The notes: generated by a model not told the origin, from the letters alone. A DNA stretch of 19,536 nt from an uncultured delta proteobacterium (GCA_963743305.1 CAVUPH010000038.1:1-19536); one strand, 5' to 3'. Shown: positions 1-1,546, counted from the first letter of the stretch. A program made the numbers and translations.

Positions 1-26
1 TTGGATTTGTAAATAGGGGTCGGACC

Positions 27-353
27 CAATGCCGTTAACTTAACAGAAAGAGCCTGTTTTTGCTATCTTTAATGGTTTCGGGAGCCAGGGGCAAGGGCTG
101 GGGAACGGGGTATTTGCGAGGACGTCCCCGGCGACGTTTTTCCAAGCCCCGACTTTTTCGGCGATATTCCTGTCGATCCCGAGTGAACTGACGGCCCGGT
201 TTTATAGACACGCGGTGCCGGGCACAGGCCTTTATAAAGACCTCCCAGAAAGGCCAGAGTAGCTTTTCCGAAGTGGCCAGCAGTAATTTCAGAAACAAAC
301 GGGTTTCGGTAAGTGCCCGAGCAAAACTGATCTGACCGACGGAAACGTGGATC
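27..353 (-). mobile_element. IS4-family element right-end fragment: transposase C-terminus plus terminal IR CAATGCCGTTAACTTAA (27-43)
   Basis: ORF 35..355(-) reads ...QISFARAL...KPGRQFTR...RRRGRPRK...LLS*, typical of IS4 transposase C-termini. The stop codon lies inside an IS4-type terminal IR. No DDE core is present; the fragment ends at 354. Confidence 0.7.
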
Positions 354-369
354 AAATCGGGGCAGGACC

Positions 370-664
370 CAATGCCGTTAACTCAACAAGAAAAGTGAGC
401 GTCCGATCCCAATTGAAACGCAAACCCCAATTTATCAGATGAGGTGTGAACCAGGGTATCAACCCCGTCAACGGCTTCACATGCAGTGACAAATCAGATA
501 AGGAGATAGACGTGAGATTTATTTTACTGTCCCGACATACAGACAACAGCGAAATTCCAGAGATGGATTTACACACGAGGTCTTCCCAGAGATTTCCCTG
601 GAGGAGGCGGCTGGGAGAAAATGAGAAGCGCAGTATATCCAAGGAGATGTTCGCCGGAAGAGGC
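370..664 (+). mobile_element. Probable IS4-family left-end fragment: IR CAATGCCGTTAACTCAA (370-386) plus degraded transposase N-terminus
   Basis: The IR matches 27-43 at 16/17. An AAGGAG RBS precedes a GTG near 512. One frame gives EVFPEISLEEAA...GDVRRKRR, reminiscent of the IS4 N-terminal 'RxRKLP' region. Confidence 0.5.
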
Positions 665-785
665 GAATCGGGGTCTAACCAAACAAACCCATTGAATTTA
701 CCTAAATCATGTTGAATCAGGAAGGCGTTTGAAGCCTTAAAATGCCCTTTTTACCCCCAAAAAAGCTTTCTAAGCAGACAAACCC

Positions 786-988
786 ATGCCCAGGGCCAAT
801 CGGCATTTCATCTCCGGTCAGATCTGGCACACCACCCACCGCTGCCGCAAGAGGGAATTTTTACTTTCCGGGATGATCGGTGGACGGAAAGCCTGGCGGT
901 TGGGGAGAGGTCTTTTAAAAGAAATTCGGGAGGCTTTAGGGGTAAGGGCCAGCGGCCGTTCAGTCATCTCGGATGAGGAAAATTATGA
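786..988 (+). pseudogene. Internally deleted Y1 (HUH, RAYT-like) transposase
   Basis: N-terminus MPRANRHFISGQIWHTTHRCRKREFLL (786-866) is joined directly to C-terminal motifs RDDRWTESLAVG (from 869, another frame) and KEIREALGVRASGRSV. The HUH and catalytic Tyr core is absent. Confidence 0.75.
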
Positions 989-1546
989 ATGGCGAATGAC
1001 GATAGCACCAAAATAATTCCCAGAGGAACGCCGGGATCAGCGGCCATGTCGGCAAACATAAAACGAGCGATGGCGATCACCGCCAGCCTCAACCGTTTGA
1101 CGTACAACGATGCGGGCGAAATCCGCGCCTTGTTCAGCGAGCTCATCGGCAGGAAGGTGGACGACAGCTTTCTATTGATTCCACCGTTCTATACGACTGG
1201 CGGGTCCGATATCCGTGTTGGGCGTAATGTTTTCGTAAATCAGAACTGCACTTTTTATGATCTTGGAGGCCTCGACATTGCCGATGATGTGATGATCGGC
1301 CCGAACGTGAGCATCATCACGTCCGGCCATCCCATTGAACCTTCTCAGCGGCGCGCCTTTGTAGTCGCCAAGCCCATTGTGATTGAAAGAAACGTCTGGA
1401 TCGCAGCCGGAGCAACGATCATCGGCGGAGTGACGGTCGGCGAAAACTCTGTTGTTGCGGCAGGCTCCGTAGTCACCAAGGACGTTCCCCCGAATACTCT
1501 TGTCGGAGGAAATCCGGCGAGAATCATTCGCTTGATTGGAGACTGA
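989..1546 (+). CDS. Sugar O-acetyltransferase (maltose/galactoside acetyltransferase-like, hexapeptide repeat); putative gene cassette
   Basis: 185 aa with left-handed beta-helix repeats (IRVGRNVFVNQNCTFYD, VMIGPNV, VWIAAGATIIGGVTVGENSVVAAGSVVTKDVP, GNPAR). Confidence 0.92.
   Translation: MANDDSTKIIPRGTPGSAAMSANIKRAMAITASLNRLTYNDAGEIRALFSELIGRKVDDSFLLIPPFYTTGGSDIRVGRNVFVNQNCTFYDLGGLDIADDVMIGPNVSIITSGHPIEPSQRRAFVVAKPIVIERNVWIAAGATIIGGVTVGENSVVAAGSVVTKDVPPNTLVGGNPARIIRLIGD

Follow-up and report, generated by a model that had tools for sequence, protein, structure and literature searches.

The window, by which we mean the whole 19,536-bp stretch analyzed, is an entire contig of a 43-contig, 90%-complete draft genome (G000); its position 1 is a contig end, with no sequence to the left of it. 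The first kilobase holds remnants of an IS4-type insertion sequence (IS) with its inverted repeats (IRs) and of a TIRtron, in which a RAYT-like Y1 transposase gene (TIRYT) is flanked by terminal inverted repeats (TIRs). The features, given with the evidence for each, were as follows.

11..26, + strand: motif copy 1, the outer part ("tip") of a TIRtron TIR; the same tip flanks intact TIRYT genes.
18-26: 9-bp target of the IS4-type element within motif 1, GGTCGGACC, seen as the target duplication in full IS copies.
27..356, - strand: truncated right end of an IS4-family IS (tblastn, E 1.8e-47 and E 1.6e-32).
354..369, + strand: motif copy 2 (tip), with which a 62-bp relic begins on the left; placed by its motif match and by a G002 ortholog without 347-432.
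370..399, + strand: second IS4-type IR (370-386) plus ~13 nt, right-end-like (positions 2-24 of the full copy L010 versus 371-394, 87.5%).
400..415, - strand: inverted tip, 3 mismatches from the consensus, at the right-hand end of the 62-bp unit 354-415.
416..664, + strand: host DNA with a YCII-gene remnant at ~486-624, from the G002 ortholog; no IS homology.
665..700, + strand: motif 3 and the inner TIR part, together the uninterrupted TIR at the 5' end of a TIRtron; from its start to the start codon (786) are 121 bp.
786..1013, + strand: TIRYT (Y1) pseudogene, internally deleted and frameshifted (E 2.9e-8; C-terminal piece at 51-53% identity).

A sequence-only reading of this DNA had described three REP-like motif copies as an array whose spacers were the two ends of an IS4 element. 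The copies themselves were readily recovered: RAATMGGGGNNNRACC occurred three times in the window (11-26, 354-369, and 665-680, spaced by 343 and 311 bp), all on the + strand, where 0.03 copies per window were expected by chance and none of 200 shuffles reached three. An IS4-type IR had been placed right after motifs 1 and 2, and the 17-nt CAATGCCGTTAACTYAA was indeed found immediately 3' of both (27-43 and 370-386), with 0 expected.

The first spacer had been read as an IS right end carrying the C terminus of the transposase in reverse, and protein comparisons agreed. A 264-aa IS4-type fragment from contig C23 matched window 355..38 (tblastn; 77.6% identity, E 1.8e-47), and the full transposase of a relative matched 370..38 (E 1.6e-32). 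The relic (27-356) comprises a 17-bp IR (27-43) and the last ~107 transposase codons (minus-strand ORF 35-355), and the DDE/YREK core is absent from it. Eight such right-end relics, from 128 to >1,200 bp, were identified in G000, where no IS left end or N terminus was found, and all 21 inspected IS fragments of the same type were right ends. Nor was an intact IS4-type transposase found in the 90%-complete draft. Full copies were found in relatives of the same family. In genome G020, L010 had 17-18-bp IRs (TAATGCCGTTAACTTAAG and CAATGCCATTAACTTAAG) 1,927 bp apart and a 354-aa ORF (Pfam DDE_Tnp_1, 1.2e-17; NCBIfam transpos_IS4_1, 150 bits versus a cut-off of 115), while L070 had a single uninterrupted 527-codon ORF. 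The Y-2-R-3-E-6-K signature was present in the ORFs of relatives as YHLRWDIETFYRDFK. The published end consensus of the IS4 subgroup, -AATR--------WTW (PMC2266710), was fitted by both IRs of the window (CAATGCCGTTAACTTAA at 27-43 and CAATGCCGTTAACTCAA at 370-386). Two properties depart from the values listed for the subgroup in that source (length of 1.40-1.65 kb, target duplication of 10-13 bp): the IS is longer (1,919-1,934 bp, about 1.93 kb), and its 9-bp duplication is shorter, the latter value lying inside the range of the IS4 family. By homology the element is an IS4-family member, and by its ends it belongs to the IS4 subgroup, with an IR of (C/T)AATGCCGTTAACTTAAG and MITE derivatives.

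Motif 3 leads into the other mobile element. The Y1 remnant that had been suspected 3' of the repeats was confirmed, as window 786-896 matched the first 36 residues of a 234-aa Y1 protein that is intact in a relative (54% identity, E 2.9e-8). The window copy consists of these N-terminal 36 codons and a C-terminal piece at 903-1013 and could be aligned with L067 of genome G001; it has neither a 3' TIR nor the part of the gene that encodes HUH and the catalytic Tyr. An intact 234-aa gene in L022 of genome G008 (Pfam Y1_Tnp, 5.2e-10; best NCBIfam model REP_Tyr_transpos, REP-associated tyrosine transposase, at 67.6 bits, below the cut-off of 80) was bracketed by AAATGAGGGTCGGACC upstream and by GGTCCGACCCCATT downstream, the latter being the motif inverted. 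The 3' end of the TIRYT element was conserved between G008 and G001 as far as the tip and divergent beyond it. Within G000, the sequence after motif 3 was found in ~9 places ahead of Y1-gene remnants; at least 9 TIRYT gene copies were present, all of them broken, and no intact TIRYT of the window's subfamily was found in the draft. Since neither an intact IS4-type transposase nor an intact TIRYT of the subfamily is present there, activity of either element in G000 cannot be inferred.

The association of this TIR with TIRYT genes extends across phyla. A survey with one genome per species took in 605 relatives, of which the best 80 were fetched, from Desulfobacterota, Nitrospirae, anammox Planctomycetota, and one Zetaproteobacterium among others, and 51 had full flanks. 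Among these 51 fully flanked loci (from the best 80 of 605), GGGGTCGGRCC with at most 2 mismatches lay upstream of the start in 43, mostly at 105-170 bp (range 62-268; 121 bp in the window), and tip-like sequence lay inverted on both sides in 34. An IS4-type IR was found inside 0 of the 80 loci (best 80 of 605). The TIR consensus across loci was GGGGTCGGACC-A-n-G-n-TAAC, i.e., GGGGTCGGRCC-A-N-G-N-TAAC. At one insertion in G001, seen at its left junction alone, the tip came with the element, G000 having an uninterrupted dehydrogenase-like ORF in that place. Judged from these surroundings, the 16 bp of the motif form the outer portion of a TIRtron TIR, and the link between motif and Y1 transposase drawn by the sequence-only reading holds in that form.

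Its description of the motif as REP-like, in the sense of a high-copy repeat, does not hold. A loose search for the tip gave 36 matches in G000 versus 26 in the reversed genome, the surplus copies lying beside short palindromes, TIRtron ends, or IS4 IRs. When the tips and 345-425 were folded as hairpins, the energies were no better than those of shuffles (z from +1.55 to -1.26), and the 3' TIR of two relatives folds into a similar stem. Tips in one orientation also cluster in G001 and G007, and in G001 inverted tips enclose TIRtrons that are gene-less or have an internal deletion (L067 1467-1630 and 2282-2830). The window's TIRYT probably falls in subclass 2.1 of the TnpA-Y1 family, an assignment that is not established because no HTH-type C-terminal Pfam domain was detected; the intact TIRYT had no relative among the sequences of the PDB.

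How the IS came to lie against these tips was addressed through its flanks. The full copy L010 is flanked on both sides by direct repeats (GGTCGGGCC/GGTCGGGCC), and the flanks of L070 (GGTCCGACC) likewise match as direct repeats at 9 of 9 bases. Comparison of all 18 complete inverted IR pairs in G000 and in loci retrieved from relatives (4 of IS size, 14 of MITE size) revealed perfect 9-bp direct repeats in 6, and in none of the 18 did the inverted match exceed the direct one by more than 1 base. Where flanks were non-palindromic, direct matches outnumbered inverted ones by 9 to 6 (L010), 9 to 4 (L057), and 9 to 6 (L061). Because the flanks of these three are clearly non-palindromic, their direct repeats cannot be part of a TIR; the direct 9-bp duplications therefore place the start of the IS at (C/T)AATGCC and the motif in the flank outside it. 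The 9 nt beside the IR at 92 distinct IR junctions, a set unfiltered for orthologs or chance IR matches, agreed with GGTCNGACC at every base in 37 cases; allowing 1 mismatch raised this to 55, and allowing 2 raised it to 72. G-rich and AAT positions were seen further out from the junctions, and GGGTCNGACCC fits GGG-N5-CCC. Among recognizable TIRtron left ends in G000, inspected by eye, an IS4 or MITE end lay exactly at the core in 4 of 9; two of those four are in duplicated segments of contigs C33 and C40, which leaves 3 of 8 distinct ends. On the evidence of these flanks, the IS4-family element and its MITEs insert into the palindromic TIR core GGTCNGACC and duplicate 9 bp, and we infer that the transposase itself chooses this target. 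The earlier proposal that the IS targets the motif is thus upheld.

Three MITEs (L064, L037, and L054, the last on contig C7) had flanks that matched at 9 of 9 bases when inverted and 8 of 9 when direct, their central base being flipped. Such flanks are not expected from a simple insertion into a 21-bp palindrome, so a second step is needed: they can be produced when a TIRtron has a MITE in each of its TIRs and the two recombine, and mobilization of tip-to-tip units could give rise to them as well. A separate idea, that the IR of the IS (…TAACTTAA) mimics the inner TAAC box of the TIRtron, was dropped because left ends in the genus of G000 are without a TAAC box.

The second spacer (370-664) had been taken for an IS left end with the N terminus of the transposase, and this identification failed. 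Three full IS copies, compared with window 1-1100 as DNA and as all ORFs of ≥80 aa, matched only 27-356 and 370-394, the latter again right-end-like, and 395-664 gave nothing better than E 0.4 against any of them. Bases 400-415 are instead an inverted tip, making 354-415 a 62-bp unit of tip, IR remnant, and inverted tip; the linker at 385-399 aligns ambiguously, either as a continuation of the IS or as separate sequence. Pfam searches of the window's short ORFs returned nothing useful, the fragments being too short. The sister species G002 (L068) was informative for the rest of the spacer. Its syntenic blocks correspond to window 17-346 (89%), 433-563 (86%), 563-739 (94%), and 738-2002 (94%), and its ortholog is without 347-432, that is, without the second unit, ~10 nt of the IS, and 17 nt on the host side. 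G002 carries there an intact 114-aa gene (Pfam YCII, E 1.2e-8) that aligns with window ORF 446-715; the window has kept the ends of this gene (~486-624) and has ~204 bp deleted near 563. With the gene intact in G002 and its ends present here, 416-664 belongs to the host and contains a pseudogene. That transposon ends were collected in order, as had been suggested, is not borne out where only one of two spacers derives from the IS and the ortholog is without 347-432.

The junction between the two spacers was placed by metagenomic sequence. Contigs of two unrelated metagenomes match 16-356 at ~94% and then continue as IS sequence like that of contig C23, unlike the window, which switches to tip 2 at 356; the relic was therefore broken at 356, within the 3 nt it shares with the tip. 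Contigs of four metagenomes, from related organisms, cover only 1-370 and 630-1100, with none covering 371-629, and none of the public runs held >13% of the sampled words of window 1-1100; a gap in such cover carries no weight either way.

We regard it as quite probable that the locus is a decayed nest of two interacting mobile-element families lying ahead of host genes, with no functional array. What the parts are, that the target is duplicated, that the TIR is conserved, and that 416-664 comes from the host were demonstrated above; the order of events that we infer is as follows. The resident elements would be TIRtrons, each a gene for a RAYT-like Y1/HUH transposase between TIRs of the form given above, and their palindromic core would be the preferred target of the IS4-family IS and its MITEs, presumably read as a symmetric site by a transposase dimer, by analogy with other IS4-family elements. 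Insertion would proceed by ordinary DDE cut-and-paste with 9-bp duplication, and insertion at the core yields "tip + IR" junctions such as those at 11-43 and 354-386. Each insertion would disable one TIRtron end, and deletions would then erode both elements, so that here only the right end of the IS survives at 27-356 and only 62 bp of the second unit; the 5' TIR left untouched would be motif 3, in a TIRtron with an internally deleted gene. That several tips share one orientation may reflect strand-biased insertion, as by single-strand transposons, or the clustering of TIRs described for TIRtrons. Several observations count against the decayed nest: the flipped-center flanks of three MITEs, the length and duplication size of the IS relative to the subgroup, the one-base departure of the TIR core from the published GGGGWSAS, and the absence from the draft of an intact copy of either element; no public run containing the organism was found that could give the junctions read support. 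In addition, the IS relic abuts the outer edge of tip 2 exactly to within 3 nt, and in L020 of genome G007, 35 nt of IS end are followed by a full tip and TIRtron, whereas random deletion does not predict IS fragments that end at tip edges.

A different account holds that inverted-tip units with IS4 debris are non-autonomous elements moved in trans by TIRYT, which we think unlikely, if worth keeping in view. Its examples would be window 354-415, C25:48211-48476, and perhaps the tip-flanked MITEs; the second unit would have been inserted beside or into the IS relic rather than left by deletion, and motifs 1 and 3 would be explained as in the decayed nest. One line of support is the unit on contig C25. 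This 266-bp unit (C25:48211-48476) consists of a tip, an IR, ~221-231 bp of IS right end, the linker, and an inverted tip; it shares with the window the tip, IR, and IS right end (91% over 231 bp) and the right boundary (window 385-415 and C25:48446-48476, 30 of 31 identical), while the flanks of the two differ immediately outside the tips. That boundary sequence was present at these two places in G000 and at 0 in the 20 relatives searched. The gap in the G002 ortholog, the gene-less TIRtron derivative bounded by inverted tips (L067 1467-1630), and the flipped-center flanks of the three MITEs, which fit tip-to-tip units, point the same way. Against this, G002 is also without ~10 nt of IS beside the second unit, so that a deletion in G002 explains the gap in 347-432 at least as well as an insertion in G000. 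There are two copies only, with no empty site, target signature, or circle junction seen, and no orthologs of the C25 flanks were found in G001-G003; the likeness between C25 and the window may reflect either the copying of a tip-bounded unit or recombination between dispersed IS relics, which could yield the same pattern. TIRYT activity had, moreover, never been shown as of the 2013 description of TIRtrons (PMC3733652).

It is very improbable that the motif is instead the outermost part of a long TIR (~33-37 bp) belonging to the IS4/MITE itself, its link to Y1 being incidental. The recurrence of GGGGTCGGACCCAATGCCGTTAAC as a single block ~20 times in G000, a 188-bp MITE on contig C7 whose ~36-bp inverted ends include the motif, and the three MITEs with perfect inverted and imperfect direct flanks would all suit such a structure. 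It is already largely refuted by the direct duplications, the 9 bp beside L010, L057, and L061 being clearly direct and non-palindromic. Like motif 3, moreover, at least 8 further copies in G000 run into TIRtron sequence with no IR, and the motif accompanies TIRYT genes of other taxa at 43 of 51 loci with the IS4 IR at 0 of 80 (best 80 of 605).

Also very improbable is the proposal that Y1/HUH cleavage trims a landed IS at the motif, or that IS-end fragments are gathered in an array as decoys or antisense templates. Two IS-end fragments do stop a few nt from the outer edge of a tip (window 356; G007 L020), the three tips share one orientation as do clusters in G001 and G007, and the 21 of 21 right ends are antisense to the 3' end of the transposase gene. 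But one spacer is IS-derived and the other a host YCII pseudogene, the second unit is missing in G002, and no other place shows spacings like the 343 and 311 bp seen here. Other IS relics vary widely in length (35-330 bp), and the DNA into which most of them run is unrelated and has no tip. G000 retains no intact Y1 gene of the subfamily that could do the trimming, a search of the entire window at the Rfam gathering threshold gave 0 matches to known RNA families, and further decayed copies of these elements are dispersed through the genome.

The structure is real but is an ordinary pile-up of decayed mobile DNA. As such it carries little weight for cell biology, being dead mobile DNA ahead of ordinary genes. 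What it brings to light is an IS4-subgroup element with its MITE family, not described before, from uncultured relatives of sulfate reducers. Their sharp 9-bp palindromic target lies in the conserved end that TIRtrons carry, and TIRtrons are widespread Y1-transposase elements whose function is unstudied. A thin literature search found no paper that names TIRtron TIRs as the target of an IS. The cross-phylum TIR consensus, ~105-170 bp upstream of the gene, could serve as a substrate for a first biochemistry of TIRYT. For annotation, "tip + IR" junctions warrant caution, as they resemble long MITE ends and REP arrays. Should the tip-bounded units (354-415, the 266-bp unit on C25, and the MITEs with inverted flanks) turn out to be non-autonomous elements copied by TIRYT acting on TIRs, a prospect we hold to be doubtful, they would be genomic footprints of TIRYT-driven mobility, never demonstrated before, and would imply a two-way parasitism in which a DDE IS specializes on Y1-element ends while the Y1 element in turn spreads fragments of the IS.

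Among known systems, a CRISPR-like or decoy array would have regular repeats, spacers of a single origin, and conservation of the array; the locus has three repeats, spacers of two origins, and a second unit absent in an ortholog. REP/RAYT systems comprise >100 dispersed palindromes of 20-40 nt, usually tagged by GTAG, around a single-copy RAYT. Common to those systems (and to REPINs) and the elements here are a Y1/HUH gene between inverted short GC-rich repeats and the occurrence of gene-less doublets. The differences lie in the absence of a high-copy family (36 matches versus 26) and of a GTAG tag, in a weak hairpin potential (z from -1.3 to +1.6), and in several decayed gene copies (at least 9) instead of one conserved.

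TIRtrons come much closer. Di Nocera, De Gregorio, and Rocco (2013) gave this name to TIR-flanked RAYT-like genes, and that of TIRYT to the proteins, and described a common GGGGWSAS motif in the TIRs at a constant distance from the gene, with TIR copies that are single, dimeric, or clustered (PMC3733652). The elements here share the RAYT-like Y1/HUH gene of ~234 aa between TIRs without REP hairpins, a TIR that starts with GGGG + W + S mostly 105-170 bp upstream, a low copy number, and TIR copies that are single, paired, or clustered. They differ in that the core is GGGGTCGG, one base off the published GGGGWSAS, and in that all copies in G000 are broken, with only the 5' TIR (665-700) surviving in the window. 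According to Quentin et al. (2018), most TIRYTs fall in TnpA-Y1 subclass 2.1; its members have a median length of 238 aa and are not accompanied by REPs, and these authors equate it with Bertels' RAYT group 1 (PMC6006769). L022, at 234 aa, is near that median and has NHIH and WE, but its Y motif is YMDLNM where the subclass has YIELNP/Y[IV]HLNP (Y[IV]ELNP), and no second Pfam domain was found in it at E ≤ 0.01 where the subclass has an HTH-like C-terminal domain.

On the side of the IS, palindromic target motifs with staggered cuts are familiar. Table 1 of Linheiro and Bergman (2008) gives GGGNNNNNCCC (11 bp) for IS231A, GNNGCTNAGCNNC (GCTNAGC; 9 bp) for Tn10/IS10, and 9 bp for IS50 (PMC2577343), and strong conservation of target arms is described for members of the IS4 subgroup (PMC2266710). 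The element here likewise duplicates a symmetric site, in its case 9 bp whose central base is free, and differs from those elements in conservation that reaches far beyond the duplicated 9 bp, because its target belongs to another mobile element. IS231A itself reportedly prefers the ends of Tn4430. The closest precedent is ISRm22. The element here likewise is a DDE IS of the IS4 family that occupies one position of a palindromic, GC-ended site within another repeated element and duplicates about one helix turn of target. All copies of ISRm22, from Sinorhizobium meliloti, lie inside REPs, and REP targeting is known for IS of five families, IS4 included (Tobes and Pareja, 2006; PMC1525189). The two part ways in that ISRm22, of the IS4Sa group, targets a high-copy REP, whereas the element described here, of the IS4 subgroup by its ends and accompanied by MITEs that share its target, enters the TIR of a Y1 element.

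The draft genome to which the window belongs (G000) contained two pairs of duplicated segments with TIRtron ends bearing MITE insertions, and therefore not all copies of the junctions represent independent events:

Duplicated segments in G000
C33:145.0-146.2 kb and C40:2.7-4.8 kb, pair 1
C6:238273-238952 and C6:242134-242731, pair 2

An IS relic on contig C25 (within C25:47646-49246, corresponding to L081:700-2300) was 94% identical to the copy that the sister species G002 carries at the locus orthologous to the window and 91% identical to the window copy, and its flanks had no match in the related genomes G001-G003. The greater closeness of this relic to the G002 copy could reflect gene conversion, or the contig could have been binned from another strain; the contamination estimate for G000 was 5.7%.

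Comparison with the syntenic G002 locus (L068) revealed that a YCII-domain gene, intact in G002 (L068:2455-2799), is now a pseudogene in the window (486-624), having lost ~204 bp internally. In the TIRtron remnant, G002 also had a 166-bp insertion within the 5' leader (L068:2915-3080) that was absent from the window at the matching point (739/740). Because this insertion contains two GC-rich, hairpin-like palindromes, it looks like a member of a different MITE family.

Two contig termini lay 7-10 nt outside an inward-pointing tip, the 16-bp outer part of the TIRtron TIR (window 1-26 and C6:245276-245291); these repeats seem to be points where the assembly breaks. Elsewhere in G000, lone palindromes of ~20 nt, in which a tip overlaps its own inverse (AAATCGGGGTCGGATCCCAATT and similar), were observed at C33:51500-51530 and C14:418955-418985 with neither an IS nor a gene attached; they may represent unoccupied target sites or TIR dimers of minimal size. 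Among the matches of a sequence search was a further dispersed repeat with GGGGTAGGGGTGGGACCATTTGAATTCACTTCAAATGGCGG, which resembles the tip only in having GGGGT-GGACC and is present in at least five copies:

Copies of the GGGGTAGGGGTGGGACCATTTGAATTCACTTCAAATGGCGG repeat in G000
C7:242627
C9:39215
C13:29321
C14:134026
C14:163776

A more distant IS4 relative (L015, on G023:C68; 41% protein identity) came from a host in the same phylum but a different family. Its IR is CAATGCCGTTAAGATAA, and since it adjoins GGGACAGACC / AGCCTGACC, the target preference may, judging from these sequences, be older than the IS lineage described here.
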